This document shows, in pieces, positions 7,807 to 37,289 of a stretch of DNA of 64,000 bases. The notes beneath the pieces were generated by a model. That model ran no database searches, was not told where the DNA came from, and saw only the letters and a list, made by a program, of their open reading frames with translations. The DNA lies in the IMG/VR virus record IMGVR_UViG_3300033182_000581, positions 30,492 to 94,491 of that record. The stretch is one strand, 5' to 3'. Position 1 is the stretch's first letter, and each line of letters opens with the position of its first letter. Origin of the DNA: a virus. The position numbers were made by a program, and so were the translations under genes.

Positions 7807-7870
7807 TTAACGATTTCTTAACATTAGAAATTTGGAAAATCAAAGCACATTTCTTATCTTTACTATGTAA
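7807..7870 (+). promoter_or_regulatory. Repeated element copy 1: TTAACr-N5-TTAACA-TTAGAAA-TTTG plus degenerate -7 box
   Basis: TTAACG 7807, TTAACA 7818, TTTG 7831, TATCTTTA 7855 (20-nt spacer). Confidence 0.8.
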
Positions 7871-7885
7871 TAAAAGAGATAAGTT

Positions 7886-8224
7886 ATGATAGTAAAGAAC
7901 GAAAGATTCCAAGTGACCAACGAATTGATTGGTAAGTACATCAACCGAGTGTTGTATTCAGATGTTGACCCTGTGGGTAAGATTGTAGGTATCAAAGGTA
8001 AGACCAAGGTACTGATTCAGCCAGTTTACGCTAGTGAGAACAAAACCAAAACGGAATACATCCCAGGTGGTTTTGCTGGACATTGTACGAATATGTATGA
8101 CCAATCATATGAGTTCTACGAAGATGGTGAGGTCTTTGAGGCCAGTTTGAGTAAGAGTTCTATGAAGAACCGATTTTGGGTTATTGGCGACAATCCTCGT
8201 AAATTCTACGACTACAACTTCTAA
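7886..8224 (+). CDS. Hypothetical protein (early cassette)
   Basis: 112-aa ORF between two copies of the repeated element. Confidence 0.7.
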   Translation: MIVKNERFQVTNELIGKYINRVLYSDVDPVGKIVGIKGKTKVLIQPVYASENKTKTEYIPGGFAGHCTNMYDQSYEFYEDGEVFEASLSKSSMKNRFWVIGDNPRKFYDYNF

Positions 8225-8228
8225 AAGT

Positions 8229-8290
8229 TTAACAATTTCTTAACATTAGAAATTTGGAAAAGTAAAAAAAAGTGGTACTTTAGTACTGTA
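8229..8290 (+). promoter_or_regulatory. Repeated element copy 2
   Basis: TTAACA 8229, TTAACA 8240, TTTG 8253, TACTTTAG 8276 (19-nt spacer). Confidence 0.8.
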
Positions 8291-8322
8291 AGATTGAGAG
8301 TTAAACAATAAATAAATAAAAA

Positions 8323-8595
8323 ATGACTTACGCAGAATTAAATCAGATGAGTATTGAACAACTACGAGCGTTAAACTCAAAAGTAGTTGAAGTAATTAAG
8401 ATGAAACGCAGTGAGGCTGCAATGGACATTAAGGAAGAACTTTATGTTGGTGCTAATGTAAAAGTTAACCATCCCAAGTTGATGGGTAAACAACTCCGAG
8501 TCGAGAAAATCAACCGAACTAAAGCAGTTCTCAAAGTGTTGAATGGTTACGGAACTTATACTGTTCCAATGAGTATGATTGAAGTAAATAAGTAA
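8323..8595 (+). CDS. Hypothetical protein, helix plus SH3-like beta domain
   Basis: ELYVGANVKV...VEKINRTKAVL...YTVPMSMI pattern; A-rich translation start. Confidence 0.65.
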   Translation: MTYAELNQMSIEQLRALNSKVVEVIKMKRSEAAMDIKEELYVGANVKVNHPKLMGKQLRVEKINRTKAVLKVLNGYGTYTVPMSMIEVNK

Positions 8596-8598
8596 GAT

Positions 8599-8817
8599 AT
8601 GGCTATTGTAAGTAAACCCCAAACAATCGGAATCGAAATAGATTTGACAGGCCCACAAGGTAACGCTTTTTACCTTTTGGGTACTGCTAAGAACCTCGCC
8701 AAACAATTAGGTTTGAATGGTAACCAAATTATGGAAGAAATGATGAGTGGTGATTACGAAAACCTTCTTCAAGTGTTTGATAAGAACTTCGGTTCAATAG
8801 TAACCCTTTACCGATAA
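8599..8817 (+). CDS. Hypothetical phage protein
   Basis: IDLTGPQGNAFYLLG motif; tightly packed in operon. Confidence 0.7.
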   Translation: MAIVSKPQTIGIEIDLTGPQGNAFYLLGTAKNLAKQLGLNGNQIMEEMMSGDYENLLQVFDKNFGSIVTLYR

Positions 8818-8820
8818 ATT

Positions 8821-9036
8821 ATGTTAGTAACTAAAAAATCCCCTATTAGTGGAAATTTAAATTCAATGGAGCTTCCAATTACGGAAGCTCAGTTGGAGGC
8901 TCACCGAAATGGTGAGTTGGTTCAGAATGTGTTCCCAACACTTTCAGTTGAGGAGCGTGAGTTTTTGGCGAGTGGTATCTCTCCAAAAGAGTGGAACGAT
9001 TTGTTTGGTAATTATACGGAAGATGAGTTGGTATAA
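8821..9036 (+). CDS. Hypothetical phage protein
   Basis: 71-aa ORF with VQNVFPTLSVEEREFLASGI; operon packing. Confidence 0.7.
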   Translation: MLVTKKSPISGNLNSMELPITEAQLEAHRNGELVQNVFPTLSVEEREFLASGISPKEWNDLFGNYTEDELV

Positions 9037-9235
9037 AGCACCACCCAATACTTCATGGTATTATCGTGAAATGGGTAGTAGGAACAAAAAGACTGGAAAG
9101 TTATCTTACTATACCGTAAAGGTAACCGATTACAAAATTGTAGATTGTGAATGTAAAGCAAGAGAGTTCAATCGTTACTCACCTTGTAAACATATGAAAC
9201 GATTACATCAAAAATTATCACATTTAGATATATGA
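9023..9235 (+). CDS. SWIM zinc-finger protein (start moved from 8909 to ATG 9023)
   Basis: CEC...PCKH (CxC-Xn-CxH); the ATG at 9023 removes a long overlap. Confidence 0.7.
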   Translation: MSWYKAPPNTSWYYREMGSRNKKTGKLSYYTVKVTDYKIVDCECKAREFNRYSPCKHMKRLHQKLSHLDI

Positions 9236-9309
9236 GTTGGTATCAATTAGAAATAGAAGCAGATAAGTACGAAGAGTTGCAGGAATTACTTTTGGAATTA
9301 TCAGAATAA
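9232..9309 (+). CDS. Possible 25-aa microprotein MSWYQLEIEADKYEELQELLLELSE
   Basis: ATGA overlap with the SWIM gene stop; fills the gap up to the next promoter. Confidence 0.4.
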   Translation: MSWYQLEIEADKYEELQELLLELSE

Positions 9310-9322
9310 TTTCGTATATTTG
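9291..9322 (+). promoter_or_regulatory. Bacteroidota primary-sigma promoter (-33 TTTG / -7 TATATTTG)
   Basis: TTTG 9291, TATATTTG 9315, 20-nt spacer; ATG 5 nt after the -7 box. Confidence 0.8.
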
Positions 9323-9326
9323 TTAG

Positions 9327-10586
9327 ATGATTGAATTTGTAACTGAGGGAAATATCAGTATGGAGAAGATGTATATCCACCCAATATGGGCGGATATCCA
9401 TTTACATGCGACTCAGAACAAACTATCATTATTATATATCTATGATATTGAGAAGGGTAGGGAGCTTGTAGTAAACATCGGTAATTTCGATTATCACAAA
9501 TCATCGTTGGATGATATCTCTCTAAATTGTGAGGAAGGGTATATATTGGGTAAAAAATCATTCTTAAATCTGGTCGACCTTCCAAACACTTATGATGCCG
9601 ATTTGGTAAAGTACCTACAAGTGAATGATGTATTAGAAAGGGGCCAGACTCCCACCCATTCTCATTTTCATAGAAAGTTCCACAATCTAAAGTGGGTAAA
9701 CAACTTAATACCAATTTCTAAACACATAGAATCTATCAGAGAGACAAGAGATGAATTCCTTCAGTATTACGATTTGGGTGGGGGAATCACCGAAGGTGTG
9801 AAGAAATTTGAAAATTTCTATATCAAGCCATTACATTCCGTAGAAAAGAATGGTCTTTGGACGGAGAGAGGGATGGAGTGGAGTGAGTATTATCCATATA
9901 CCTTAACATCACGTCCTTCAAATAGGTTTGGGGGAGTAAACTATGCCGCACTTAATAAAGATGATGGTAGTAGAGATAGATTTATTAGTAGGTTCGAAGG
10001 GGGTAAGTTGGTACAATTTGATTATGATGGGTATCACCCACGTATCATTGGTAGAATGGTAGGAGAACCTATTCCAAAAGAAGTATCCGCTCACCAAGCC
10101 TTAGCAGATATGTATGGGGTATCGTATGAAGAATCCAAAGGAATCACATTCCGTCAATTGTATGGTGGGGTGCAGGAAGAATATAGAAATATTCCTTTTT
10201 TTAAGAAAGTTTCACACCAAATTGATAAAATGTGGATGGAGTTCAATCGTAAGGGTTGGGTAGAAACTCCATTAGGTAGAAAGTTGATGAAATCAAATCT
10301 AAAGGATATGAATGCTAACAAACTATTCAACTATATGTTACAAGCAACGGAAACGGAGTTGAATATGAATATCCTTTCAAAAGTGGTAAATTATTTAAAA
10401 GATAAAGAATCAAAAATGGTGTTATATACATATGATTCATATTTATTAGATATACATCCTAATGAGATTAGTGTATTAAATGATTTAAAGATACTTATAG
10501 AGGGGAACGGATTCCCTACGAAAGTAGAAATCGGTGATACCTATTCAGAAATGGAATCGATTAACATAGAAAACACACAAAGGTAA
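9327..10586 (+). CDS. Compact family A DNA polymerase-like protein
   Basis: TSRPS, motif A (QFDYDGYHPRI), motif B (SKGITFRQLYG), motif C (YTYDSYLLD). Confidence 0.8.
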   Translation: MIEFVTEGNISMEKMYIHPIWADIHLHATQNKLSLLYIYDIEKGRELVVNIGNFDYHKSSLDDISLNCEEGYILGKKSFLNLVDLPNTYDADLVKYLQVNDVLERGQTPTHSHFHRKFHNLKWVNNLIPISKHIESIRETRDEFLQYYDLGGGITEGVKKFENFYIKPLHSVEKNGLWTERGMEWSEYYPYTLTSRPSNRFGGVNYAALNKDDGSRDRFISRFEGGKLVQFDYDGYHPRIIGRMVGEPIPKEVSAHQALADMYGVSYEESKGITFRQLYGGVQEEYRNIPFFKKVSHQIDKMWMEFNRKGWVETPLGRKLMKSNLKDMNANKLFNYMLQATETELNMNILSKVVNYLKDKESKMVLYTYDSYLLDIHPNEISVLNDLKILIEGNGFPTKVEIGDTYSEMESINIENTQR

Positions 10587-10588
10587 AT

Positions 10589-12979
10589 ATGACTAATTTT
10601 CTTGATGAGATTATAAGAGCGTGGTGGGTTGAAGTAGGTACAGACCTAACAAACCCCACATCTGATGCATCTATCAAAGGTCTAAAAAAAGTTTTGAGAG
10701 AGGACTTTGAATTTGATAACGATGTTATTACATACATAGTTGAAAGTATTGCGAATCGACCTTCAAACTTCTCATTGAAGGTAGGAAAATCTTCTGGGAT
10801 TGATGTTGGTAAAAATCAAACAGCGGTATCCGCACAATTACATCCTAATTGGGAAGAAGAAGAGGGTGATATCTATCAGACGGTAGATTTGGCTGAAGAG
10901 GATGAAGAGGATAAGGAAGATGAAAAGAAAGATGGTGATAGACCTGATTCTGGTGATGATAAAAAGAAGGCTGAAAAAGATATTCAAAAGTCGTCATTAA
11001 CTGCGTTGGAAAAAGATAAGTTAAAAAAAGAGGCGATTGATGATAAATTGCTAAAAACAAAACTAAAAAACCCAACTACTGGTAATATGAATCAAGTCAA
11101 CACTTTATTAGGTAAAAAGAAATCAGACCCTGCAGCATATAAAGTAGGTAGAGATTTTTTAGGTGATAAGGGTGTATCTGATGATGAAATCGAAAAACAG
11201 GCAGATGTATCAAACGATGATACACCAACTGAATCAGGTGTTGATAGAAGTGGGTTTGATAAAAAAGATAAAACACACAAAGATAATCCCAACGGACCAA
11301 CTCGTAAAGAGATTTTAGATAATTTAAATAGTGGGAATCTCGATGTTCTTTCGGAGTATCAAGATGGTGTTGCACAAAACAGAGAAAAGGGTATTGCAGG
11401 TGCCGGAGGGCCAGTTGCGAGTGAAGGTGAATCAAAATATTGTTCAGCGGTAGATACTAATTTTGATAAATGGGAATCTGAAAATGAAGATGCTATAAAT
11501 GAAACTACATCTAAATTTAAAGAGATAAAAAAATCAGCAGATGAAAAACGTACTGCATCACATTTAGGTTTAGACCCCGATAGTGATGAATTTAACAACT
11601 ATCTTGCTAAAAGAGAAGTTTGGTCAAATCAACAATTGGATAAATTAAAGGCAGATAAGGATTCTGTTTTTTACAAAAACTTCAAAGGTGATGAAGGTGC
11701 GTATAAAGATTGGATGAAAGTGGCATATGATGGTGGAAGAACAACACAGCGTGCCATAAAAGAATCTTCAATTGATACAACAAAACCACATAAAACAATT
11801 CAATCAACTTCTGAGGTAGACCAGGCAGTACAGGCACATTTAGAAGATTCCGTTAAGAATGCAAAATCTCCAGAGGATAAGAAACACGCAGAAACCCAAC
11901 TAAAAAACTTTAATAAGTTCAAAGGGTATCATGATACATATGTTATTGGTAAGGATGAGAATGGTAGAACAACCTATATGGGTATCTCAAACAAAAAAGA
12001 TGACCAGCTAAGAGACCCTCAGAACAATACAACACCTGCAGCACGATTTGAATCATTAAAAAAGAGTTATGGTAAAGATGTTGCAGATGGTGTAACAAAT
12101 TCTTTAAATAAAAACATAGATAGAGTTTCCAACGTACAACAAAATACTGTCAAAGCAGCAAGTAATATGGAAGTTACTGATGATTTTGTAGCAGTATGTG
12201 AAACTAAGGAAATGAAAAAATATATGAATGGTCTTAGAGGTAGAAAAGATATGAAAAAGTATCTTGAATCTAAAGGGATGGATATTACTAAAGTGAGTAA
12301 TAAAGAACTTTTAGTTGAGATGAATAATAAGGCCAAAGAATTAATTGATGAGGGAAAACCAGTACCTTACAACCCATATGGTAAGATTGCAATTAAAGTT
12401 GGTGAGTTTTCTAAAGTTGATAAATTTAAAAAACAATATCCAGATATTAACTTTGATGATTCTTCAGTAACAGGTTCAATTGATATAAAACAAAAAGAAC
12501 AAAGTGTAGTTACCGATTCTCACAAATCATTGGTATCTGATTTAACAGATGCAGATAAACCAGATGGTTATTCTGAAGATAACCCTAATGCAGATAATGG
12601 AAAACACCAACAAGCATACATTAGTGGTGTATTAGATGCATGTCATATTGATACATACATAGATATGGATTCAGATGATGGTATGTTACTTCAAATGGGT
12701 ATCAATGGTGTAAAACCATCTATGATTAGAAATTGTGTTGCTGAAAGAAGTGGATTCAAAGGTGATACATCAACACCCGAAGGTAAGGCCGCATTAAAAA
12801 GTCATTTAAGAAAAAGATGTAGAGTTACTCCAGGTGAATCTTCTGTAAAAATTATGGATAATGGTAAAGAAGTAGATTTATTTGAAGATACTTGGAGAAC
12901 TGCAGGAACTTCTCAGAAAGTTGCTACTCACTTTGGTGGTGCTATGAGAAAATGTTTACAGAAAAAAGCAGCCAGATAA
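10589..12979 (+). CDS. Large hypothetical protein, possible divergent PD-(D/E)xK-like domain
   Basis: 796-aa ORF with acidic linker; HDTYVIG...MGISNKK resembles the D...SxK nuclease variant (weak). Confidence 0.55.
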   Translation: MTNFLDEIIRAWWVEVGTDLTNPTSDASIKGLKKVLREDFEFDNDVITYIVESIANRPSNFSLKVGKSSGIDVGKNQTAVSAQLHPNWEEEEGDIYQTVDLAEEDEEDKEDEKKDGDRPDSGDDKKKAEKDIQKSSLTALEKDKLKKEAIDDKLLKTKLKNPTTGNMNQVNTLLGKKKSDPAAYKVGRDFLGDKGVSDDEIEKQADVSNDDTPTESGVDRSGFDKKDKTHKDNPNGPTRKEILDNLNSGNLDVLSEYQDGVAQNREKGIAGAGGPVASEGESKYCSAVDTNFDKWESENEDAINETTSKFKEIKKSADEKRTASHLGLDPDSDEFNNYLAKREVWSNQQLDKLKADKDSVFYKNFKGDEGAYKDWMKVAYDGGRTTQRAIKESSIDTTKPHKTIQSTSEVDQAVQAHLEDSVKNAKSPEDKKHAETQLKNFNKFKGYHDTYVIGKDENGRTTYMGISNKKDDQLRDPQNNTTPAARFESLKKSYGKDVADGVTNSLNKNIDRVSNVQQNTVKAASNMEVTDDFVAVCETKEMKKYMNGLRGRKDMKKYLESKGMDITKVSNKELLVEMNNKAKELIDEGKPVPYNPYGKIAIKVGEFSKVDKFKKQYPDINFDDSSVTGSIDIKQKEQSVVTDSHKSLVSDLTDADKPDGYSEDNPNADNGKHQQAYISGVLDACHIDTYIDMDSDDGMLLQMGINGVKPSMIRNCVAERSGFKGDTSTPEGKAALKSHLRKRCRVTPGESSVKIMDNGKEVDLFEDTWRTAGTSQKVATHFGGAMRKCLQKKAAR

Positions 12980-12993
12980 TACGGAGAAAATGA

Positions 12994-13383
12994 GTGAGAA
13001 CACAACTATTATGTACCTTCACAACTGAAGATTTGTTTGAGGGGATACTTAAAAATATATTTAATTCCTATGAATTGTTCAGCAGGAAGATATTCATACT
13101 TAAATTAGACCCATCCAAAGAGTTGGTGATAAGCTATAACATTATACCAAATAGAGAGACCAGATTTTTATCATCTACTATAATGGTACATAGAAAAAAA
13201 GAAAGTAATACGATATATACCATCAACGCATTGAATCGTTTGATTGAGAATTTGAATGGTGGTGTATTGGATAAATCATATCAGATAGAGTGGAATGATT
13301 ACCGCAATTCTATGATTCTAACTGATGGTGATGGGTATAAGATTATGAAAACGAATTTGTTTAGAATAATTGATGTTAATTAA
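12994..13383 (+). CDS. Hypothetical phage protein
   Basis: 129-aa ORF (QLLCTF...VHRKKESNTIYTINALN), GTG start. Confidence 0.7.
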   Translation: MRTQLLCTFTTEDLFEGILKNIFNSYELFSRKIFILKLDPSKELVISYNIIPNRETRFLSSTIMVHRKKESNTIYTINALNRLIENLNGGVLDKSYQIEWNDYRNSMILTDGDGYKIMKTNLFRIIDVN

Positions 13384-13412
13384 AAAATTTTGATATTTAT
13401 ATAGGAGAAAGG

Positions 13413-13444
13413 TTTGGTAATCCCAAATCTTTTTCGTATATTTG
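13413..13444 (+). promoter_or_regulatory. Bacteroidota-type promoter (first of two before SSB)
   Basis: TTTG 13413, TATATTTG 13437, 20-nt spacer. Confidence 0.75.
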
Positions 13445-13500
13445 TAACCATATCAACACATGGGAGTAAATGCGTGTTGAGAATAAAAAGTGAAATATAA

Positions 13501-13532
13501 TTTGGATAATTGAAAAATTATTCGTATATTTG
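13501..13532 (+). promoter_or_regulatory. Bacteroidota-type promoter (second before SSB)
   Basis: TTTG 13501, TATATTTG 13525, 20-nt spacer. Confidence 0.8.
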
Positions 13533-13570
13533 TATCAATATAAGTTTAACAATTAAAAAATGGAGTAATT

Positions 13571-14365
13571 ATGGCAATCGATTTGAATGCAATCCGAAAC
13601 CGTCTGGACAGTCTGCAGACGAAAACTACAAAGACTGACAATTTATGGAAGCCAAAACCTGGCAAACAACAAGTAAGAATCGTTCCTTACGTTCACAATC
13701 CATCAAACCCTTTTATTGAATTGTTTTTCCACTACAACTTTGGTGGTAAAAACATCCTATCACCTCAAACGCATGGTGAGGCAGACCCATTAGTGGAGTT
13801 TGCTGACCAATTGAAAGCAACTGGTGATAGAAATGATTGGAATCTATCAAAACAATTAACACCTAAGATGAGAACTTACGTTCCTGTATTGGTTCGTGGT
13901 GAAGAATCAGAGGGAGTTAAGTTTTGGGGATTTGGTAAGACAGTGTATCAAGAACTTCTTGCCTTCTTTGCTGACCCAGATTATGGTGATTTAACTGACC
14001 CAACAAGTGGTAGAGATATTACAGTTGAGTTTAAAACCGCTAAAGAGTTGGGTAAGAATTATCCTGAAACTTACATCAGAGTAAAACCTAACCAAACACC
14101 AATTACTGAAGATAGTAACGTGTTGAATCGGTTGAAAGAACAAATTGAACTACCTAATATGTTCAAAAAGTATTCTTATGATGAAATGAAATCGTTGTTG
14201 GAAACTTGGTTGGAAACTGGTCAGGTAGGTGATTCTGAAGAAGAGGAAACTCAACCAACTCAATCACAATCAAATGATTCACCATTCAATGATGAACCAC
14301 AGGCAGTATCTAACGCAACCACTGCTAATGTAAAAGATGCGTTTGACGATTTATTTAACAACTAA
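13571..14365 (+). CDS. Single-stranded DNA-binding protein (gp32-like)
   Basis: WKPKPGKQQVRIVP, GVKFWGFGKTVY, DLTDPTSGRDI; acidic C-tail DAFDDLFNN. Confidence 0.85.
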   Translation: MAIDLNAIRNRLDSLQTKTTKTDNLWKPKPGKQQVRIVPYVHNPSNPFIELFFHYNFGGKNILSPQTHGEADPLVEFADQLKATGDRNDWNLSKQLTPKMRTYVPVLVRGEESEGVKFWGFGKTVYQELLAFFADPDYGDLTDPTSGRDITVEFKTAKELGKNYPETYIRVKPNQTPITEDSNVLNRLKEQIELPNMFKKYSYDEMKSLLETWLETGQVGDSEEEETQPTQSQSNDSPFNDEPQAVSNATTANVKDAFDDLFNN

Positions 14366-14377
14366 TATTAGGGTATA

Positions 14378-15499
14378 ATGGCTAAAACAAATAGAGATGA
14401 ATTATCTTCACTTCTAGCCGATAACCTTAATAAGAAGTTCAAAGGACAACAAAAAGTTGCATATTTCTTAGATGGCTCCGAGCAGACACCCACCGACCTT
14501 ACTGAGTGGGTGTCCACCGGAGATGATATGTTAGATTTAGCAATTTCAAATCGACCTAATGGTGGATTTCCCGTTGGAAGAATTGTTGAAGTTACAGGTT
14601 TAGAAGCGAGTGGAAAATCACTCCTATCAGCACATACATTGGCAAATACACAAAAGAAGGGTGGATTGGCAGTGTACATTGATACGGAGAACGCAATTAA
14701 TCAAGAATTCTTAGAGGCATTAGGTGTTGATACCAAAAAGTTACTTTATGTACCTTTGGAAACAGTTGAAGATATCTTCGATGCAATGGATTCTATTATC
14801 GAATCTATCCGAAAATCTGATAAGGATAGATTGGTAACTATCGTAGTTGATTCAGTAGCAGCAGCAACCACTAAAGTGGAACTATCTGCCGATTACGACC
14901 AAGCAGGTTACGCAACTCAAAAGGCGATTATCATTTCAAAGGCAATGAGAAAGATTACAAATCTTATTGGTAGAGAAAGAATTTTGGTGGTATTTACGAA
15001 CCAACTAAGAGTTAGAATGGGTGTATCATTTGGAGACCCCTACACTACATCAGGTGGTAAAGCATTAGGTTTCCACGCTAGTTGTAGATTGAGAATGAAA
15101 CAAATGGGTAAACTCAATTCTAAAGTGGGTGGTGTTGACCAGACAGTTGGTATCAAAACCAGAGTTCAGGTCATTAAGAACCGAATGGGCCCACCACTCA
15201 GAGCAGTAGATTTTGATATCTACTTTGATAGAGGTATTGATAGATATGGTTCATGGTTAAGTACTATGAAAACATATAAGTTGGTAACTCAGGCAGGTGC
15301 ATGGTACACATGGACTGATGAAGGAACTGGTGAGGTGATTAAATTCCAAGCCAAAGACTTCTCAGACCTTTTGGAAGAACGACCAGAAATCAAAGAATCG
15401 ATGTATAACCAAATATGTGATACATATATTTTAGGTTATAAGGAAGCGGAAAGTAATGCAAACATAGACTCAACAGAATTTGATGATACAATCGACTAA
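14378..15499 (+). CDS. recA: RecA/UvsX recombinase
   Basis: Walker A GLEASGKS, YIDTE, VVDSVAA, TNQLR, TSGGKALGFHAS, VIKNR. Confidence 0.95.
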   Translation: MAKTNRDELSSLLADNLNKKFKGQQKVAYFLDGSEQTPTDLTEWVSTGDDMLDLAISNRPNGGFPVGRIVEVTGLEASGKSLLSAHTLANTQKKGGLAVYIDTENAINQEFLEALGVDTKKLLYVPLETVEDIFDAMDSIIESIRKSDKDRLVTIVVDSVAAATTKVELSADYDQAGYATQKAIIISKAMRKITNLIGRERILVVFTNQLRVRMGVSFGDPYTTSGGKALGFHASCRLRMKQMGKLNSKVGGVDQTVGIKTRVQVIKNRMGPPLRAVDFDIYFDRGIDRYGSWLSTMKTYKLVTQAGAWYTWTDEGTGEVIKFQAKDFSDLLEERPEIKESMYNQICDTYILGYKEAESNANIDSTEFDDTID

Positions 15500-16520
15500 T
15501 TACAAAGAAATGTTAAATAACTTATCAAATACATCCAATGGTAATGTGAATGATAAAGTTATGATTGTTGATGGCCTCAACCTATTTATTCGCGTTTTTG
15601 GGGCTGTGCCAACATTAAATGATGATGGAGAGCACGTTGGGGGGATAACAGGGTTTCTGTTATCTCTCGGTGCTCTTATCAGAAAGAACAAACCTACAAG
15701 AGTTTTGGTGGTTTTTGATGGTAAGGGTGGTTCTCATCGTAGAAAGAAGTTGTGGAAGGGATACAAAGAAGGTAGAACTGGTCTTACTAAGGTAAATAGA
15801 TTGGCAGGTTATGAAGATTTAGAGGACCAGGCCGAATCTATGAAACGTAATTTTAATACCTTAATAAAATACTTAGAATTTCTACCTATCGATTTGTGTT
15901 ACATAGACCACATTGAGGCAGATGATGTGATGGCGTATGCCGCAAAACACATCTTCCAAAAAGAAGTTTTGATAGTATCTTCTGATAAAGATTTTTTACA
16001 ATTAGTTGATGATAGAATTTCAGTATATCTACCAACTAAAAAGAAATGGATGGGCAAAGATGATGTAAAAGAGTTATTTGGAGTTCCACCACACAATTTA
16101 GTTTATTATAGAATATTCGATGGTGATAAATCCGATAATATTCCCGGTGTAAGGGGTATTGGGCCAAAAACCTTAGTAAATAAATTAGATTTTCTTCAAT
16201 CAGATGAACTTACATTAGATACCCTATTTGAAAAGGTATCTCAGATGGATGATGAAAAACTAAAGAACAAAATTTTAGAGAATAAAGATATTCTTCAGTT
16301 AAATTATGATTTAATGCAGCTATCCAATCCTATTATGGGTTCTGCCATCACATCTAATGTTAGAAATATCATAAATTCACCTATCAATGGGTTGAATTCT
16401 TTTCAATTCAAAAAAGAGTTTATGATTGATAAATTGTACACCGCATTTAAGAACGTAGAAACGTGGTTGGTGAACACATGGGGTGATTTAGATAGGTATT
16501 CAAAACAAACCAGAAAATAG
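15480..16520 (+). CDS. 5'-3' exonuclease / RNase H (FEN family)
   Basis: IVDGLN, VFDG, YKEGR, EADD, SSDKDFLQL, GDKSDNIPGVRGIGPKT. Confidence 0.92.
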   Translation: MMIQSTNYKEMLNNLSNTSNGNVNDKVMIVDGLNLFIRVFGAVPTLNDDGEHVGGITGFLLSLGALIRKNKPTRVLVVFDGKGGSHRRKKLWKGYKEGRTGLTKVNRLAGYEDLEDQAESMKRNFNTLIKYLEFLPIDLCYIDHIEADDVMAYAAKHIFQKEVLIVSSDKDFLQLVDDRISVYLPTKKKWMGKDDVKELFGVPPHNLVYYRIFDGDKSDNIPGVRGIGPKTLVNKLDFLQSDELTLDTLFEKVSQMDDEKLKNKILENKDILQLNYDLMQLSNPIMGSAITSNVRNIINSPINGLNSFQFKKEFMIDKLYTAFKNVETWLVNTWGDLDRYSKQTRK

Positions 16521-16521
16521 G

Positions 16522-16553
16522 TTTGTTTATTTAAAATAAAATTCGTATATTTG
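16522..16553 (+). promoter_or_regulatory. Bacteroidota-type promoter before helicase
   Basis: TTTG 16522, TATATTTG 16546, 20-nt spacer; ATG at 16560. Confidence 0.75.
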
Positions 16554-16559
16554 TATCCT

Positions 16560-17918
16560 ATGGATAAATTTGGAAATAAGTTTGGAACAAGCTTTCAGAT
16601 TAAGATAATCTCAGCGCTACTATCTGATAGGATATTCCTTCAGACAGTTTACGATATTATCAAACCTGAATACTTTGATTCAGAATCTAATGAGTGGATT
16701 GTAAAGAAGATTCTATCTCATTTTGATGGATATAATGAACTTCCAACATTAGATGTATTCAAAGTTGAGGTATCTAAGATTGAGAGAGATGTTCTAAAAC
16801 AATCCATTGTAGATAATCTAAAGCAGATTTGGAATGGGTTGGAATCTGATGATTTAGATTATGTAAAAGAGAAAACCTTAGAATTTTGTAAAAATCAAGA
16901 GGTTAAGAACGCAATCTTAGAATCAGTTACTCTTTTAGAGGAAGGTAAGTTCGATATCATCAAATCAAAGATTGATGATGCGATGAAAGCCGGACAGGAT
17001 ACTGATGTAGGGCATGAATACAAAGTTCATGTCAAAGAAAGATATGAATCTACTGTTAGGGATGTGATTCCAACGGGATGGGATGTGATTGATGAGTTAG
17101 CAGATGGTGGTTTTGGTAAAGGTGAGTTGATAATGTTTGCAGCACCACCGGGTATTGGTAAGTCTTGGGCATTGATAAATGTAGGAATGGCTGCGGCGAA
17201 GAAAGGTAAGACCGTAGTACATTATACATTAGAATTGAATGAAGGTTATGTAGGTCAAAGATATGATGCGGTTCTGACTGGTACGGCAGTTCCGAATCTA
17301 AAGTACAACATTGAAGATGTACAACAACAGGTTAGTAATCTGAGTGGTGAGTTGATTATTAAATACTGGCCTACCAAAACCGCCTCTATTAACGCATTAA
17401 GGGCATCTTTGGATAAATTGAAACTGCAGGGTAAACAACCTGATGTAATCATTGTGGATTATGCAGATTTGATTAAAGGTAATAGTAGAAAAGAAAGACA
17501 CGAAGAATTAGAAGAGATTGTAGAATCACTCAGAGGTATTGCGGGTGAGTATGAATGTCCTCTATTTACAGCATCTCAAATTAACCGAAGTGGGGCTGAT
17601 GATGATATTATCACAGGTACTAAAATTGCAGGTTCATTCTCCAAATTGATGACTGCTGATTTTGTTGTTTCACTAAGTAGAAAGATTGAAGATAAGTTGG
17701 CTGGGACTGGTAGATGGCACGTTATCAAAAATCGATTTGGGCCTGATGGTATGACTTTACCATCTAAAGCGAATATGAGTAATGGTAGAATTAACATATA
17801 TTCAGATGATTCCATTGATGGTAAAAAGACCCAAAGTGATATGTTAAAGGGGGAGAGTTTAGTAAGAAAGAATTTGTTACAAAAATACAACGAAATGAAG
17901 GGTGATATTGATGTTTAA
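16560..17918 (+). CDS. dnaB: Replicative DNA helicase (DnaB/gp41-like)
   Basis: Walker A APPGIGKS, YTLEL, IIVDYADL, TASQINR, KNRFGPDG. Confidence 0.92.
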   Translation: MDKFGNKFGTSFQIKIISALLSDRIFLQTVYDIIKPEYFDSESNEWIVKKILSHFDGYNELPTLDVFKVEVSKIERDVLKQSIVDNLKQIWNGLESDDLDYVKEKTLEFCKNQEVKNAILESVTLLEEGKFDIIKSKIDDAMKAGQDTDVGHEYKVHVKERYESTVRDVIPTGWDVIDELADGGFGKGELIMFAAPPGIGKSWALINVGMAAAKKGKTVVHYTLELNEGYVGQRYDAVLTGTAVPNLKYNIEDVQQQVSNLSGELIIKYWPTKTASINALRASLDKLKLQGKQPDVIIVDYADLIKGNSRKERHEELEEIVESLRGIAGEYECPLFTASQINRSGADDDIITGTKIAGSFSKLMTADFVVSLSRKIEDKLAGTGRWHVIKNRFGPDGMTLPSKANMSNGRINIYSDDSIDGKKTQSDMLKGESLVRKNLLQKYNEMKGDIDV

Positions 17919-17974
17919 TCAGTATTTATAATCACTCAATAAAAGTTTAATAGAAGTAAAATCAGGAAAAAGTA

Positions 17975-18967
17975 ATGGCAATATTTAAGGAAAGAGTACC
18001 CTTCAAACCTTTCGAATATCCAGTATATTATACTGAGGGCTGGTTGAAACAAGCACAAGCCTTTTGGTTACATACTGAGATTCCGATGCAAGGTGATGTG
18101 AAGGATTGGAATGAGAACCTAAACGAATCAGAAAAGAATTTAGTAGGAAATATCCTATTAGGATTTGCACAAACTGAATGTGCAGTATCCGATTATTGGA
18201 CAACTATGGTAACACAATGGTTTCCAAAGCATGAGATTAAACAAATGGCTATGATGTTTGGTTCACAGGAAACAATTCACGCAACAGCATACTCTTACCT
18301 TAATGAAACATTGGGTTTAGAAGATTTTGAAGCATTCCTACACGAACCTGCGATTGCAGAAAAGTTTGAATATTTAACGGCAGTATCATCTAATTGGACA
18401 CATAAAGATTTAGAGTCAAATCCAATAGCAAGAAAGGAAGTAGCACGTTCGTTAGCAATATTCTCAGCATTTGCAGAAGGTGTATCTCTATATAGTTCTT
18501 TTGCTGTACTGTATTCCTTCCAAATGAGAAATCTTTTGAAAGGAATTGGTCAGCAGATGAAATGGAGTGTAAGAGATGAATCTCTACATTCTAAAATGGG
18601 ATGTCAATTATTCCGACATATGTGTGATGAATATCCTGAATTGTTGGAAGAAGTTAAAGATGATGTACTCCAAGCAGCACAATATATGGTTGAGATGGAA
18701 CACAACTTTATCGATAAGATGTTTGAGATGGGTGATTTAGAAAATATGAAATCAGCTGATTTAAAACACTTTATCTCAAAAAGAGGAAATGAAAAGTTAA
18801 AAGAGTTAGGATACGAACCTACATTTGAATATAATGATAAGAAAGCATCTGAATTGGATTGGTTCTATCATTTAACAGGAGGAACAACACATACCGATTT
18901 CTTTGCAGTAAGACCTACGGATTACTCTAAAGCAAATGAGGGTGAAGATTTTAACGATATTTGGTAA
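17975..18967 (+). CDS. nrdB: Class I ribonucleotide reductase beta subunit
   Basis: KPFEYP; metal ligands TE, ETIH, EG, DESLH; Tyr in HATAYSY. Confidence 0.95.
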   Translation: MAIFKERVPFKPFEYPVYYTEGWLKQAQAFWLHTEIPMQGDVKDWNENLNESEKNLVGNILLGFAQTECAVSDYWTTMVTQWFPKHEIKQMAMMFGSQETIHATAYSYLNETLGLEDFEAFLHEPAIAEKFEYLTAVSSNWTHKDLESNPIARKEVARSLAIFSAFAEGVSLYSSFAVLYSFQMRNLLKGIGQQMKWSVRDESLHSKMGCQLFRHMCDEYPELLEEVKDDVLQAAQYMVEMEHNFIDKMFEMGDLENMKSADLKHFISKRGNEKLKELGYEPTFEYNDKKASELDWFYHLTGGTTHTDFFAVRPTDYSKANEGEDFNDIW

Positions 18968-18973
18968 AAAGTT

Positions 18974-20746: not shown

Positions 20747-20791
20747 AGAAGTTATTTAAGATATGTTTAAAATTTTAATGAAGGTAAAAGA

Positions 20792-21031
20792 ATGAAGTAT
20801 TTGTATTTTTCAGCAGCATGGTGTGGCCCTTGTAGAACATTAGGCCCGATTATGAATCAGGTTTCATCAGAAGTTCCTGTACAAAAAGTAGATGTTGATT
20901 CTGAGTATGAGTTAGCACAAAAGTTTAACGTAAGAAACATCCCAACTGTGGTGTTGGTAAATGGTGATTCTGAATTGAAACGATTTGTTGGAGTACAAAG
21001 TAAAGATACCTACATAAACGCAGTAAAATAA
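20792..21031 (+). CDS. trxA: Thioredoxin
   Basis: WCGPC active site and IPT cis-Pro motif. Confidence 0.92.
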   Translation: MKYLYFSAAWCGPCRTLGPIMNQVSSEVPVQKVDVDSEYELAQKFNVRNIPTVVLVNGDSELKRFVGVQSKDTYINAVK

Positions 21032-21032
21032 A

Positions 21033-21064: not shown

Positions 21065-21069
21065 TAGTT

Positions 21070-21697: not shown

Positions 21698-21713
21698 TAG
21701 AAATAAATAAGTT

Positions 21714-24746: not shown

Positions 24747-24807
24747 CAATTTCTTAACATTAGAAATTTGGATATTACAAAAACTTTTTGTATATTAACA
24801 CTGTATT
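24743..24807 (+). promoter_or_regulatory. Repeated element copy 3
   Basis: TTAACA 24743, TTAACA 24754, TTTG 24767, TATATTAA 24791. Confidence 0.8.
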
Positions 24808-24827
24808 AAGAAATTAAAAATTGAAAT

Positions 24828-26459: not shown

Positions 26460-26483
26460 ATGTACAAAATTGATATATAAAAT

Positions 26484-27713
26484 ATGACAGAAATACAACA
26501 ATATTTTGAGAAGTTTAAAGATATGGAGCCATACTTAGAAATCAATGAAGAAGAATGGTCTTACATAAAAGAAACTTTCCCAAAAGATGAGGTAAAAGAA
26601 GTATTGGCGGATATTCTTATGGATTATCCACTACCAACTTCTGAAATAAGTGAAGTTGATGCATATAATGATTTTATGAAACTAAAAGGAATTCGTTGGA
26701 ATGAACTTTTAGTAGAAGATGAGTGGTTTCCACGAAAAGCATCCGAATCAAAATATCCACTAATCTTCAGAGGTAAACCACAATATATTCGTAGATTAAA
26801 TACAGGTAATAATGCATCAAATCATTTTCAACAAGAAAATCGTTGGGGTGTAGATGGAACTGTATCACCTGGCCCAAAACGAACATGGGAAACGAGAAAG
26901 TTTATGGTTACTCTAATCGGTGGGTTATACACTCTTAAATTTCCAAAGGTTACCCGAAACGAATTGAGAGTTTGTTTAAGTTTAAGAAAATACATTTGTT
27001 CACAATTCAAACCAAATGTTGCAAAGGTATTCTATGAAATGATGGGTTCTGAGAACGTATTAGATTTTAGTGCAGGGTGGGGTGATAGATTCGCTGGATT
27101 TATGGCAGCAACAAACACCAAACATTATGTAGGGTTAGACCCTCGTAAAGAAAACCATCCTTACTATCATATGCAAGGTGAGTTCTATGATAAACACTTA
27201 GGGTTCTTTGAAGGTAACAAAGATTGGGAGTTTCATATCACTGCAGCAGAAGATTTTGATTTTACTCCTTATGATAATCATTTCGATATGGTGTTTACAT
27301 CACCACCTTACTTTTCAGTAGAGAGGTATTCATATGATGATAATCAGAGTTGGGTTCGATACAAAACGATTGATGATTGGAACAAAAACTTCCTACATAA
27401 AACTATTGAAAAGCTTTGGCCATCGATTAAGAAGGGTGGTTACATCGCAGTTAACATCGCTGATGTATATGCATCATCTGGCGGTGAGAGAAAGTATATG
27501 GAAATAACAAACCCAATGAATGATTTTATTAAATCGTTAGGTGGTACTTATGAAGGGTGTTTAGGTATGGAAATGGCTAAACGACCAGGTTCAGTTGGTG
27601 CAGGATTGGTAATCGAAGAGGATAGAGATAGATATACTGAAGAAGAATTAAGAAAGCATGATGAAAATGTTGGTAAAACATTTTGTGAACCAATTTGGAT
27701 TTGGAAGAAGTAG
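26484..27713 (+). CDS. DNA amino-methyltransferase (N4-C/N6-A type), paralog 1
   Basis: SQFKP, LDFSAGWGDR (motif I), FTSPPYF (motif IV), EPIWIW. Confidence 0.85.
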   Translation: MTEIQQYFEKFKDMEPYLEINEEEWSYIKETFPKDEVKEVLADILMDYPLPTSEISEVDAYNDFMKLKGIRWNELLVEDEWFPRKASESKYPLIFRGKPQYIRRLNTGNNASNHFQQENRWGVDGTVSPGPKRTWETRKFMVTLIGGLYTLKFPKVTRNELRVCLSLRKYICSQFKPNVAKVFYEMMGSENVLDFSAGWGDRFAGFMAATNTKHYVGLDPRKENHPYYHMQGEFYDKHLGFFEGNKDWEFHITAAEDFDFTPYDNHFDMVFTSPPYFSVERYSYDDNQSWVRYKTIDDWNKNFLHKTIEKLWPSIKKGGYIAVNIADVYASSGGERKYMEITNPMNDFIKSLGGTYEGCLGMEMAKRPGSVGAGLVIEEDRDRYTEEELRKHDENVGKTFCEPIWIWKK

Positions 27714-34899: not shown

Positions 34900-34922
34900 T
34901 TAAAAAATAATTAGTATATTTG
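34891..34922 (+). promoter_or_regulatory. Bacteroidota-type promoter before clamp loader
   Basis: TTTG 34891, TATATTTG 34915, 20-nt spacer; ATG at 34927. Confidence 0.8.
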
Positions 34923-34926
34923 TAAT

Positions 34927-35856
34927 ATGAACAAAAACGAAAATACGTTGTGGGTTGAAAAATATAGACCCGATACATTAGAAGGTTATGTTGGTAACGA
35001 ACATATTCTTGAGAAGGTAAGAATTTACATTCAGAATGAGGATGTTCCACATCTTCTATTATATGGTCAAGCAGGTACTGGTAAAACCACATTGGCTAAA
35101 ATCATCACTAATCAGATTGATTGTGATGTGATGTACATCAACGCATCTGATGAAAATAATGTTGATACGGTAAGAGATAAAATCAGAGGATTTGCATCAT
35201 CTATGGGATTCCGTAAGTGGAAAGTTATTATTTTGGATGAGAGTGATTACCTTACACCAAACGCACAGGCAGCACTTCGTAATCTGATGGAAACTTTTTC
35301 CAAAACTACAAGGTTTATTTTGACTTGTAATTATGTAGAAAAAATTATTGACCCCATTCAAAGTAGATGTCAAACCTTTGGAATTACACCACCATCTAAG
35401 AAAGAGGTTGCAATTCGATTAAAAGAAATTTTAGATTTGGAAGGTGTAACTTATGAAATGCCTGATTTGGCAACATTAGTTAATAGTGGGTATCCTGATA
35501 TTCGTAGGGTATTAAACGCAGCCCAAAGACAGGTTGTAAATGGTAATTTAAAGATTGATAAAGCATCTACCATTCAAGCAAACTATATGGATGAGGTTTT
35601 AGAGATTTTAAAATCTAATAGTAATCTAAAGGATTCATTCAGAAATGTAAGACAAATTATCGCGGATTCGAAGGTAAAAGATTTTACACCATTCTATCGA
35701 TTCCTATATGATAATGTTGATGAATACGCAAGTGGTAAGGCGGGTAACATTATCTTAAAGATAGCAGAAGCACAATACCAGGATGCATCAGTAGTTGATA
35801 AAGAAATCAATGTGATGGCAATGATGTTACAAATTTTAATTGATATAAAAGGATAA
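34927..35856 (+). CDS. Clamp loader ATPase subunit (gp44/RFC-like)
   Basis: WVEKYRP, GQAGTGKTT, INASD, ILDESD, SRC. Confidence 0.95.
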   Translation: MNKNENTLWVEKYRPDTLEGYVGNEHILEKVRIYIQNEDVPHLLLYGQAGTGKTTLAKIITNQIDCDVMYINASDENNVDTVRDKIRGFASSMGFRKWKVIILDESDYLTPNAQAALRNLMETFSKTTRFILTCNYVEKIIDPIQSRCQTFGITPPSKKEVAIRLKEILDLEGVTYEMPDLATLVNSGYPDIRRVLNAAQRQVVNGNLKIDKASTIQANYMDEVLEILKSNSNLKDSFRNVRQIIADSKVKDFTPFYRFLYDNVDEYASGKAGNIILKIAEAQYQDASVVDKEINVMAMMLQILIDIKG

Positions 35857-35859
35857 GTT

Positions 35860-36120
35860 ATGGCAAAAGGAAAAGGAAAAGTTGTGGGTATGAAACCACA
35901 ACAACAAGCACCACAATTGAACATTGACCCAACTAAGTTGGATACTGTTTCATGTGAAAATTGTGAAGGTATCTTCTTTGAAGAAGTTACAATGTTTAAA
36001 GAAGTTCCAGCAGTTCAATCACCTAATGGACAGAAATCAATGTTACCGATTCCTGTTGTTAGATGTGCAGAATGTGGAAACGTATCAGAGAAATTCTTAC
36101 CTAAAGAGTTGTTACCTTAA
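35860..36120 (+). CDS. Zinc-ribbon hypothetical protein
   Basis: CENC...CAECG. Confidence 0.75.
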   Translation: MAKGKGKVVGMKPQQQAPQLNIDPTKLDTVSCENCEGIFFEEVTMFKEVPAVQSPNGQKSMLPIPVVRCAECGNVSEKFLPKELLP

Positions 36121-36572
36121 TGGCTAAGAAGAGTGATACATCGGTAAAGGCTAAGAGTATATTTGACCATCTTAGTGGTATAAAGGAAAAGAAGGTTGCT
36201 TGGGAATCTCTATCAGAGATGGATAAGAAATCATTCTCACCATTTATTATCAATCGATGGTTGAGTATGAACTTAGACCTTTTACCAATTATTAACATTC
36301 TTCAGAAATATACAATTGGAACTTTAAAAGAGCGAGAAGTTTACAAATTGTATTTAGATTTCCTACCTAAAGAAAAAACATTTGATAAATACATCAAAGG
36401 TAAGAAAGAAGGAAAGTACAACAAAGAACTCTTAGAGTACCTATCAAAGTGGTATGGTGTATCTCAGAGAGAAGTTAGTGATTATTTAGAGTTACTTTCA
36501 GACGATGAAGTAGTTAAGATTTTAACAAAATATGGTTTAACAGATAAAGAAGCAAAAAAGTTATTAAAATGA
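36120..36572 (+). CDS. Putative clamp loader small subunit (gp62-like)
   Basis: IFDHL...FSPFIINRWLSM pattern; two genes after gp44-like. Confidence 0.65.
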   Translation: MAKKSDTSVKAKSIFDHLSGIKEKKVAWESLSEMDKKSFSPFIINRWLSMNLDLLPIINILQKYTIGTLKEREVYKLYLDFLPKEKTFDKYIKGKKEGKYNKELLEYLSKWYGVSQREVSDYLELLSDDEVVKILTKYGLTDKEAKKLLK

Positions 36573-36823
36573 GTAGATTAGTAGATATGTTAAAAGCATC
36601 AGCAGTTGCTGATAAGGCTAAAGCACTCCTTACGTTGGAGTTGTTAGAAAACAAAGGAGTTGGTATTGGTGACCACTCAACTGGTGATTTTTATGAGAAC
36701 GCAGAAGAGGCGTTGAGAATGTTAGTTGACGCGGATGATAGGTTGATTACGTTGGAAAGATACTTCACTCCACAACAACCACAAACTGAAAAGAAGGATA
36801 CCAAACAACAATTAAATGGATAG
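36569..36823 (+). CDS. Hypothetical protein
   Basis: 84-aa ORF with GVGIGDHS; overlapping operon packing. Confidence 0.7.
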   Translation: MSRLVDMLKASAVADKAKALLTLELLENKGVGIGDHSTGDFYENAEEALRMLVDADDRLITLERYFTPQQPQTEKKDTKQQLNG

Positions 36824-37223
36824 TATAAGAGAAGCAAAAACCAAAGTAGTTCATAGGGGTGAACGTACAATGAGTACGAACAAAGAACAATCCGCAGTTG
36901 ACTTTTGTGAACAAAATTATCCTGAAATGATGGAAGAGTACAAAAGGATTATGTGGGAACAATACGAAACCTTTTGTAAGAAACAACGTAACTATGGGCC
37001 TGATAACATTTCAGTAGGTACTGATTTGAAAACTAAAGATGAGATTAAGATTTCACTTACAGGCCTGTGGTTTAGAATGAACGACAAAATTCAACGACTA
37101 AAACAATTAGTCGTATTGGGTCAACCTGATGAGGTGGGTGAATCGGTACAAGATACATACGCTGACCTTTCAGTATATGGTATCATTGCTCAAATTGTTC
37201 AAAACGGTAAATGGGGTAAATAA
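36816..37223 (+). CDS. DUF1599 / nucleotide-modification-associated domain protein
   Basis: KKQRNYG...RMNDKIQRL...ESVQDTYADLSVYGII. Confidence 0.8.
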   Translation: MDSIREAKTKVVHRGERTMSTNKEQSAVDFCEQNYPEMMEEYKRIMWEQYETFCKKQRNYGPDNISVGTDLKTKDEIKISLTGLWFRMNDKIQRLKQLVVLGQPDEVGESVQDTYADLSVYGIIAQIVQNGKWGK

Positions 37224-37224
37224 T

Positions 37225-37289
37225 TTAACAATATCTTAACATTAGAAATTTGGATTTATCAAATATTATCCGTACTTTAGTACTGTAAT
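37225..37289 (+). promoter_or_regulatory. Repeated element copy 4
   Basis: TTAACA 37225, TTAACA 37236, TTTG 37249, TACTTTAG 37273. Confidence 0.8.

Follow-up and report, generated by a model that had tools for sequence, protein, structure and literature searches.

A tandem TTAACA promoter cassette in a putative T4-like phage of Bacteroidota and its possible link to host phosphate regulation

This report concerns a short DNA element, built around a tandem repeat of the hexamer TTAACA, which occurs four times in a 64,000-nucleotide stretch of viral DNA (the window), and the promoters and genes which are associated with it. The window comprises bases 30492–94491 of the IMG/VR record IMGVR_UViG_3300033182_000581, which in its whole length of 169,380 bp is called G000 here. 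G000 is 93% complete and has a G+C content of 34%. A crude call of open reading frames (ORFs) gave 206 on the plus strand and 5 short ones on the minus strand. The family-B DNA polymerase (PolB) shares 49.5% identity with that of the Microcystis phage Mel-JY01 and about 32% with the polymerases of T4-like cyanophages. Judging from these identities we regard G000 as presumably T4-like. It is probably a marine phage of Bacteroidota. A megablast search with window positions 7000–13000 gave no match among the deposited phages. The public runs which hold G000 sequence are DNA contigs; two metatranscriptomes have a share of only 6–7%.

Promoter cassettes at four gene boundaries

When searched with at most one mismatch, the 29-mer TTAACANNNNNTTAACATTAGAAATTTGG has four matches in the window, at 7807, 8229, 24743 and 37225, all on the plus strand, and none in 100 dinucleotide-preserving shuffles of the window. 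The hexamer pair alone is not enriched when two mismatches are allowed (20 seen vs 26 expected in the window) and the signal is therefore the whole 29-mer. Relative to the preceding stop codon the four copies start at 3, 4, −4 and 1 nucleotides (nt). An initial annotation, made from the letters of the window, had placed a 28-bp element at or near the previous stop codon at these four positions, with a hexamer repeat of 11-bp period, 7 nt to a TTTG motif, non-consensus −7 boxes and a TGTA downstream. All of this was recovered when we re-read the sequence. A promoter cassette of about 65 bp, plus a short conserved leader, has the 28-bp element as its upstream half, and this unit is used 17 times in the phage.

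Cassette 1 (7807–7870, plus strand as all the following) consists of TTAACG-ATTTC-TTAACA (7807–7823), TTTG(G) (7831–7835), the −7 box TATCTTTA (7855–7862) and TGTAA (7866–7870). In cassette 2 (8229–8291) the same order is found with TTAACA-ATTTC-TTAACA (8229–8245), TTTGG (8253–8257), TACTTTAG (8276–8283) and TGTAA (8287–8291), and in cassette 3 (24743–24805) with TTAACA-ATTTC-TTAACA (24743–24759), TTTGG (24767–24771), TATATTAA (24791–24798) and TGTA (24802–24805). The first TTAACA of cassette 3 contains the stop codon TAA of the upstream gene for a pyridoxal-phosphate (PLP) enzyme. Cassette 4 (37225–37288) is made up of TTAACA-ATATC-TTAACA (37225–37241), TTTGG (37249–37253), again TACTTTAG (37273–37280) and TGTAA (37284–37288). 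The distance between the second hexamer and TTTG is 7 nt in these cassettes, and TTTGG is separated from the −7 box by 19 nt, or by 18 nt in cassette 2. The −33/−7 layout is of the sigma-A type, and the cassettes are thus predicted promoters.

The genes behind the cassettes are mostly small. Cassette 1 is followed by an ORF of 112 amino acids (aa) at 7886–8224 (c1_112), which belongs to no Pfam family and has no homologue in 26 distinct related loci. Behind cassette 2 there is a run of small ORFs (8323–9235) of 90 aa, 72 aa, 71 aa (8821–9036) and 108 aa (8909–9235), the last two calls overlapping each other; none of them has a Pfam family and relatives hold only some of them. The 543-aa ORF behind cassette 3 (24828–26459) has neither a Pfam nor a PHROG family and is sporadic in relatives, with 91% identity in locus L474 and 47–48% in L485 and L487. 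Two methyltransferase-like genes and then PolB come next, with no large gaps in between. Cassette 4 precedes a 117-aa ORF (37291–37644) without a Pfam family, which is present in only one of 39 distinct related loci.

At the end of this fourth unit lies the plain promoter of an exonuclease gene with a remnant of the repeat (37641–37690, plus strand), which reads TTAATA-TT-AAAAG-TTTGG and then TATATTTG. The initial annotation had named a degenerate copy at 37641, and such a copy is indeed present: its second hexamer is kept at five of six positions (TTAATA), followed by TT-N5-TTTGG and a perfect TATATTTG box, while the 3′ end of the 117-aa gene fills the position of the distal hexamer. This copy is best read as the exonuclease promoter after a promoter-plus-gene unit had been inserted upstream and had overwritten the distal hexamer.

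The 72-aa protein encoded behind cassette 2 (8599–8817) is a conserved phage family, found in ten loci, one of them that of the 266-kb relative G066, with 44–93% identity. It has no Pfam family. Its AlphaFold model, with a predicted local distance difference test (pLDDT) score of 85.5, suggests a small beta-alpha3-beta unit; compared with the PDB the model matched no solved fold and no helix-turn-helix protein, and the nearest look-alikes in the Atlas are unnamed viral clusters with 54 to 247 members.

A promoter class in G000 and in viral contigs

Scanning G000 with a pattern of the whole layout, in which the spacer between the hexamers was permitted to be 4 or 5 nt long, gave 17 copies, all on the plus strand, and none on the reverse strand. 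The tandem TTAACA-N5-TTAACA is present in all 17 copies picked by this pattern; a 4-nt spacer is found in a few relatives, and in some copies there is a third or fourth repeat in phase. The 13 copies other than those of the window are located at 95.7–128.3 kb among many small genes and tRNA genes. Thus the initial annotation, which had counted four accessory gene cassettes and had proposed a genome-wide scan, was correct as to the four copies but understated the extent of what is a genome-wide class, which in relatives also drives the core exonuclease gene.

Three types of promoters can be distinguished in the intergenic gaps of G000, namely the repeat-bearing type, a plain type TTTGG-N19-TATATTTG, which is similar to host rRNA promoters, and CATATTTATA ahead of structural genes. 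This third type, (C)ATATTTATA, occurs in the window at 57733–57829 and 59649–60003 and in G000 at 1–30 kb and 126–165 kb; it is often preceded by a terminator and, on the other strand, resembles the T4 late box TATAAATA.

In all 17 G000 copies the −33 TTTGG is intact and the repeat is situated upstream of it. The −7 box, for which the consensus is TAnnTTTG, is weakened to TAnnTTTA, TAnnTTAG or TAnnTTAA in each of the 15 copies detected by our box-scoring script, and the −7 box of the repeat-less promoters of the same genome is mostly a perfect TATATTTG. To look beyond G000 we scanned IMG/VR with the exact pattern TTAACA-N5-TTAACATT-N4/5-TTTGG and found the full layout in at least 118 loci with at least 170 sites. 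In the viral set a perfect TAnnTTTG box is present in only 13 of 113 repeat-bearing promoters and the distance between TTTGG and the −7 box is 19 nt in 109 of the 113 sites. Conservation among 121 distinct sites with a 5-nt spacer extends over the hexamers, TT, TTTGG, the −7 box, GTAA and a leader similar to GAGAGATATG. The most conserved columns are the hexamers with their 11-bp spacing, whereas the flanking positions drift, and the first hexamer lies mostly within TTTAACA.

The complete 266-kb relative G066, with a PolB 53% identical to that of G000, has 29 exact copies of TTAACA-N5-TTAACA on one strand and none of the reversed pattern used as control. Four further complete relatives at a similar distance (G071–G074, 202–289 kb) have no copies of the element above the control. 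The same genomic slot holds a repeat-bearing promoter in some relatives and a plain promoter in others, which marks the repeat as something added to an ordinary promoter and separable from it. The core of the cassette is an ordinary Bacteroidota sigma-A promoter with a −33 TTTGG and a weakened −7 box.

The element also contains an inverted repeat (AATTTCT ... AGAAATT), and it could be argued that this forms a hairpin which terminates the upstream transcript, the cassette then being a composite of terminator and promoter. The three best copies in the window form a 7-bp stem of −3.3 to −3.7 kcal/mol and the element adjoins the previous stop codon. However, 115 distinct viral elements had no better folding energy than chimeras joined from their left and right halves (−1.81 vs −1.82 kcal/mol, p=0.59), in the copy at 37225 the stem is disrupted and no compensating change restores it, the stem consists of AT pairs only and has no T-run, and a terminator scan of the plus strand at the window copies found nothing. 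We therefore rejected a terminator role of the element itself, for want of covariation and of any folding beyond that of the chimeras, and regard it as very improbable.

A different kind of hairpin was read from the sequence of other cassettes. At G000 positions 95714, 114859, 120303 and 128252, outside the window, and in the loci L013, L073 and L091, the −33 TTTGG makes up the 5′ arm of a hairpin which contains GC (GGTTTGG-ttatt-CCAAACC, for example), and the T-run after the hairpin doubles as the spacer before the −7 box. These cassettes look like promoters with a built-in terminator. The plain promoters of the window at 13400 and 37645 contain the same TTTGG-N5-CCAAA palindrome.

Full phage-type cassettes with the phage leader were also seen in contigs of metagenome-assembled genomes (MAGs) assigned to Schleiferiaceae (L131) and Flavobacteriaceae (L153) and of a MAG labelled Mycoplasmatota (L136). 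They are probably phage contigs which were mis-binned with their hosts, and as such hint at hosts among the Flavobacteriales. Relatives of 167–180 kb are present in IMG/VR, and the samples from which the relatives stem are coastal, from lagoons and from aquaculture. Two other parts of G000 were noticed. A six-gene block at window positions 51138–57255, which includes a cupin of the mannose-6-phosphate-isomerase type, is shared with G066 and absent from the element-less genomes G073 and G074; it looks like a module for sugar or polysaccharide modification. A gene of the PhoH family (E 5.6e-51) is located outside the window at G000 positions 4961–5542, in the structural-gene region and after a terminator-like hairpin; no repeat-bearing cassette was found ahead of it.

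Exchange of genes behind the cassettes

For the comparison of gene content, relatives were retrieved through the flanking core genes. The initial annotation had suggested that the element may double as a site of gene exchange, in which case the genes behind it should vary, and the genes behind the element do differ among relatives at all four sites, with an alignment at the nucleotide level in one slot only.

This slot, which contains cassettes 1 and 2, lies between core genes for proteins of 210 aa and 419 aa. The interval between them measures 1523 nt in the window and ranges over 381–3688 nt among 26 distinct relatives; 25 of these 26 loci have the element, 22 of them no more than 130 nt from the upstream stop codon. 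The small genes of the slot other than the 112-aa gene are each found in 2 to 8 of the 26 loci. When the window is compared with L368 and L364, nucleotide homology extends through promoter 1 to the start codon, stops at 7881–7896 and resumes at 8222–8224, which is the first base of cassette 2. The break brackets the 112-aa gene exactly and therefore this gene was replaced between two cassettes. At the end of the same slot a comparison of window positions 9236–9326 with L364 (3906–5979) shows a 2-kb insertion in three close relatives, its site coinciding exactly with the plain promoter (9321) upstream of the 419-aa gene; plain promoters are therefore insertion points as well.

In slot 3, after the gene for the PLP enzyme, a cassette with a 4-nt spacer is kept in four close relatives, and three different genes are found behind the same promoter and leader in L474, L475 and L476. 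More distant relatives have a plain promoter there, followed directly by a methyltransferase gene or by PolB. In slot 4, ahead of the exonuclease gene, the interval varies from 4 to 2615 nt in 39 distinct relatives, and in about a dozen loci a full repeat-bearing cassette stands directly before the exonuclease gene.

Most metagenome contigs on window positions 7000–26999 break at the cassettes, as is expected for repeats. Contigs from two studies join position 7889 to 8318 and so omit one gene and one cassette, which is weak evidence since the matched sides are short. These observations suggest how exchange could proceed: near-identical cassettes at the boundaries of core genes would offer short homologies for the gain, loss and replacement of promoter-plus-gene units, and newly acquired genes would come already wired to the control of the cassette.

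Possibly the element is nothing but such a mobile or recombinogenic repeat, in the manner of the PeSL (promoter early stem-loop) sequences of other T4-type phages, with the TTAACA hexamers hitch-hiking and having no regulatory role. The whole cassette including its leader is repeated nearly verbatim and brackets swapped genes, and the contigs joining 7889 to 8318, weak as they are, would agree with this. On the other hand the hexamers and their spacing are better conserved than the flanks, repeat-less promoters fill the same slots in other relatives, so that the repeat is a selected addition which can be separated from the promoter, and it is coupled to a weak −7 box. We therefore consider it improbable that the hexamers lack a role in regulation.

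A candidate regulator of the repeat and comparison with known systems

On balance we think that the TTAACA repeat is the binding site of a host regulator of the PhoB/PhoP type, a reading which we base on the sequence and geometry of the repeat and which implies control by the host's PhoB. The two hexamers, 11 bp apart, would bind a dimer of the phosphate-responsive regulator of the OmpR/PhoB family (PhoB or PhoP). They start 48 and 37 nt ahead of the −7 box, about −40 to −60 from the predicted start site. The bound regulator would offset the weak −7 box and lift transcription in a phosphate-starved host, and the same activation might be possible when the infection itself drains phosphate. The weakened −7 box fits a dependence on an activator. 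We infer binding by a host regulator, activation and not repression, dependence on phosphate, and recombination at the element as the cause of the gene swaps.

The closest described motif comes from Riemerella anatipestifer (Flavobacteriales), in which sequencing after affinity purification of DNA (DAP-seq) and electrophoretic mobility shift assays (EMSA) with phosphorylated PhoP gave TTTAACA as the most conserved nucleotides of the binding motif (PMC9603813). Phosphate starvation induces this two-component system, and the moxR probe used in the EMSA contains a tandem TTTAACA (PMC9603813). The half-site of the phage is this PhoP motif, taking the order Flavobacteriales as the lineage of the host. 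Beyond the Riemerella motif a literature search found no description of a Pho (phosphate) box in Bacteroidota (PMC9603813).

We also looked for the repeat in bacterial genomes. The strict phage pattern gave 54 single matches in 596 Gb, including the promoters of a sodium/phosphate (Na/Pi) cotransporter with PhoU domain (L169, and alike L174, where the gene was assigned by similarity) and of a glycerophosphodiesterase (L177); in L169 and L174 these host promoters show the phage layout in full. The triple repeat TTAACA-N5-TTAACA-N5-TTAACA, searched without promoter context, was found in at least 120 bacterial loci. A Pfam tally of the 64 ORFs which start no more than 150 nt downstream of it counted seven of the PstS type, eight ABC permeases, two Na/Pi cotransporters, two PhoU and one PHO4. 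In Bacteroidota and relatives the genes behind the tandem include those for PHO4 (L298), PstS (L362), a regulator of the OmpR/PhoB type (L261) and TonB-dependent receptors, besides the cotransporter and glycerophosphodiesterase genes of L169, L174 and L177 named above. The tandem also precedes genes for phosphate-selective porins in Tenacibaculum (L188) and in a Flavobacteriales MAG (L199), and at both sites it is the 17-mer TTAACATAAACTTAACA which is also used by the phage. Genomes of Flavobacteriaceae contain 3–10 exact hexamer pairs each, almost all of them intergenic, and pstS promoters of this family have forward-oriented TTAACA-like tandems, one of them with a TATCTTTAG box.

Ahead of phosphate-uptake genes the tandem has the same orientation and helical register as in the phage. 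In 16 of 29 bacterial arrays the last repeat and the TAnnTTTG box are separated by a distance of 4 modulo 11, the same phase as the 37 and 48 nt of the phage, part of these arrays having been preselected for TTTGG at a fixed spacing and the triple-repeat subset not. TTAACA with an 11-bp period and a fixed register to the −7 box is thus a candidate Pho box of Bacteroidota. A six-frame search of the phage genome for the DNA-binding domain Trans_reg_C (PF00486) gave no match at E≤1, and the rRNA promoters of three Flavobacteriaceae genomes have A-rich upstream tracts and no TTAACA repeats. Taken together, the motif, its geometry and these two negative results make the host's PhoB/PhoP-type regulator the best candidate. 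The initial annotation had proposed activator-dependent promoters and an OmpR/PhoB-type regulator which possibly senses phosphate; the −7 boxes, the shared half-site and the tandems ahead of phosphate-uptake genes are consistent with both proposals.

As an alternative, the repeat could be recognised by an activator which the phage encodes or by an RNA polymerase which it has modified, the cassettes then being a temporal (early or middle) class, comparable in logic to the MotA boxes of T4 middle promoters, and their likeness to a Pho box a coincidence or mimicry without a phosphate signal. A whole class is concerned, with 17 copies in G000 and 29 in G066, the ATTTC spacer being kept although the PolB proteins are only 53% identical, and the element is far commoner in viral than in bacterial sequence. 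The −7 region, TGTAA and the leader are conserved along with the repeat, and complete relatives at a similar distance (G071–G074) lack the element. Furthermore, 16 proteins of G000 are present in G066 but not in G073 and G074, among them small unknowns such as the 72-aa protein. A DNA-binding family was, however, detected in none of the ten of these co-occurring proteins which were scanned, and the model of the 72-aa protein resembles neither a solved fold nor a helix-turn-helix protein. A phage-encoded binder of the OmpR/PhoB type was rejected, as no Trans_reg_C domain is found in the six frames. The half-site, the 11-bp period, the orientation and the register are those of the bacterial phosphate promoters and of the PhoP motif, which is too much for chance, and the −33 element is retained, unlike in MotA-type promoters. 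A phage factor is accordingly an explanation which we take seriously but doubt.

Another candidate is RNA polymerase itself. In E. coli the UP element has its two subsites immediately ahead of the promoter element and about 11 bp from each other, and the repeat upstream of −33 has this geometry. The repeat could thus be a constitutive UP-like element for the alpha C-terminal domains of the host RNA polymerase and the cassettes strong early promoters without a signal; the small genes of early type which they drive, and a tRNA gene in relatives, would suit such promoters. But the rRNA promoters of the three Flavobacteriaceae genomes lack the repeat, the −7 boxes of the repeat-bearing promoters are weakened and not strong, and in bacteria the tandem is tied to phosphate genes and not to highly expressed genes in general. 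We therefore judge this possibility unlikely.

Several observations speak against phosphate control by the host or against a special role of the cassette in exchange. The −33 TTTGG is intact in every copy, so that the promoters may be substantially active without an activator, and the host phosphate promoters L298 and L362 place a repeat over the −33 region, unlike the phage. The exact phage-type pattern is as rare in bacteria as the figures above show. In Flavobacteriaceae only one or two of 13 Na/Pi cotransporter loci have the tandem upstream (L213, and weakly L218); the gene of this cotransporter is not a reliable Pho marker in the family, and PstS was found in only 7 of 61 sampled genomes. 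The retention of 17–29 copies across PolB proteins 53% identical would also fit a conserved phage-encoded factor, and several small proteins without assigned function co-occur with the element. No forward TTAACA tandems were found upstream of the regulator–kinase operons in 29 Flavobacteriaceae loci; these upstream regions contain repeats of the TGTTA type in the opposite orientation, and the orientation rules in the phylum are therefore not settled. Genes were also swapped at element-less sites (window positions 8823/9056 and 9321), so the element is not required for gene flux. Finally, in a cyanophage study predicted phage Pho boxes often failed in EMSA (PMC10976474).

The regulator–kinase operons themselves have a recurrent upstream arrangement. 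In many of the 29 loci (L555–L584) direct repeats TGTTAnn-N4-TGTTAnn and a TATCTTTAC −7 box without a −33 TTTG are located about 80–100 nt upstream of the operon. The phage cassettes have this same variant of the box, and the core of the operon repeats is the reverse complement of TAACA. The gene of the OmpR-type regulator was matched in 79 of 81 sampled Flavobacteriaceae genomes at E≤1e-40, in 77 of them once. It encodes 227 aa in the loci which were opened and is followed in ten mapped loci by an ORF of about 345–380 aa; the one scanned, in L575, is a histidine kinase.

As a tentative synthesis, a widespread clade of T4-like phages of marine Flavobacteriales may have wired a promoter class, about a third of their non-late units with 17–29 cassettes, to the phosphate-starvation regulator of the host, with the cassette as the unit of exchange. 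If this is true, a gene captured in a hyperplastic slot would automatically come under the control of phosphate, or of a Pho response induced by infection, and the accessory genes which are expressed would depend on the nutrient state of the infected cell. A Pho response caused by phage DNA synthesis could then act as a timer supplied by the host. One host regulator would be borrowed for a whole promoter class and not for one or two auxiliary genes. Regulation and the shuffling of genes in hyperplastic regions of T4-like genomes would also be tied together in a concrete way. In phosphate-poor seas flavobacteria are major degraders of the material from algal blooms, and to our knowledge little is known about the regulation of transcription in their phages. 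The cassette would offer a signature with which metagenomes can be searched for phage genes that track the phosphate status of the host.

The nearest precedent for the regulatory part is the T4-like cyanophage S-PM2d, which has tandem Pho boxes with a TTAA core, PyTTAAPyPy(T/A) (Py, pyrimidine), ahead of its own genes (PMC10976474). The PhoB of the host binds some of these boxes, and hypothetical genes, mazG and the DNA polymerase rise under low phosphate; for pstS and phoA of P-SSM2 control by the host PhoBR is cited in the same paper (PMC10976474). The DNA polymerase is reached here too, in that one cassette of the window heads an operon which runs into PolB. But the boxes of S-PM2d are few, degenerate and individually placed and several of them failed in EMSA, whereas here a rigid cassette is present 17–29 times per genome. 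In the present phage the repeat is furthermore fused to a −33 element which is intact and a −7 box which is weakened, the spacing being fixed, and the host phylum is different.

For the exchange of genes the PeSL sequences are the obvious parallel. They are short promoter-containing repeats between genes in the hyperplastic regions of T4-type phages, and insertions, deletions and replacements between close relatives begin and end at the motif (PMC2839356, PMC4122927). The cassette shares with them the breakpoints, seen by nucleotide alignment for the first slot and from gene content for the rest, the high copy number (17), and, for the window copies, the location in intervals between core genes which vary in length and content. 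A PeSL combines a stem-loop terminator with an early promoter, whereas the four window copies have no selected stem-loop; unlike in PeSL as described, the extra module of the cassette is a tandem direct repeat which resembles a response-regulator site.

With the PhoP motif of Riemerella the element has in common the TTTAACA sequence and, as regards its candidate regulator and probable host, the OmpR/PhoB family and the order Flavobacteriales (PMC9603813). That study deals with chromosomal genes of a bird pathogen, with 583 peaks and a resemblance of the motif to the ArcA box of E. coli (PMC9603813). Rules for spacing and orientation were not defined in it, and Riemerella is not known as a host of the phages discussed here.

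In activated promoters of Bacillus subtilis the PhoP boxes are repeats of TT(A/T/C)ACA which lie on the coding strand at intervals of about 11 bp, and the Pho promoters of Bacillus have no −35 element. Hexamer, period and orientation are thus the same as in the phage, but phylum and sigma promoter type differ and the phage keeps its −33 element. In the MotA-dependent middle promoters of T4 the activator box replaces the −35 element, whereas the phage cassette keeps the −33 TTTGG and has its repeat upstream (homologues of MotA and AsiA were not searched).

Control by the host PhoBR in T4-like cyanophages and the shuffling of promoter cassettes in T4-type coliphages and vibriophages are both established. 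What is new is a rigid cassette of putative Pho box and promoter which phages of Bacteroidota use for an entire class of promoters and which is found in more than 100 marine viral contigs; the novelty thus lies in the combination of the two known kinds and in its scale.

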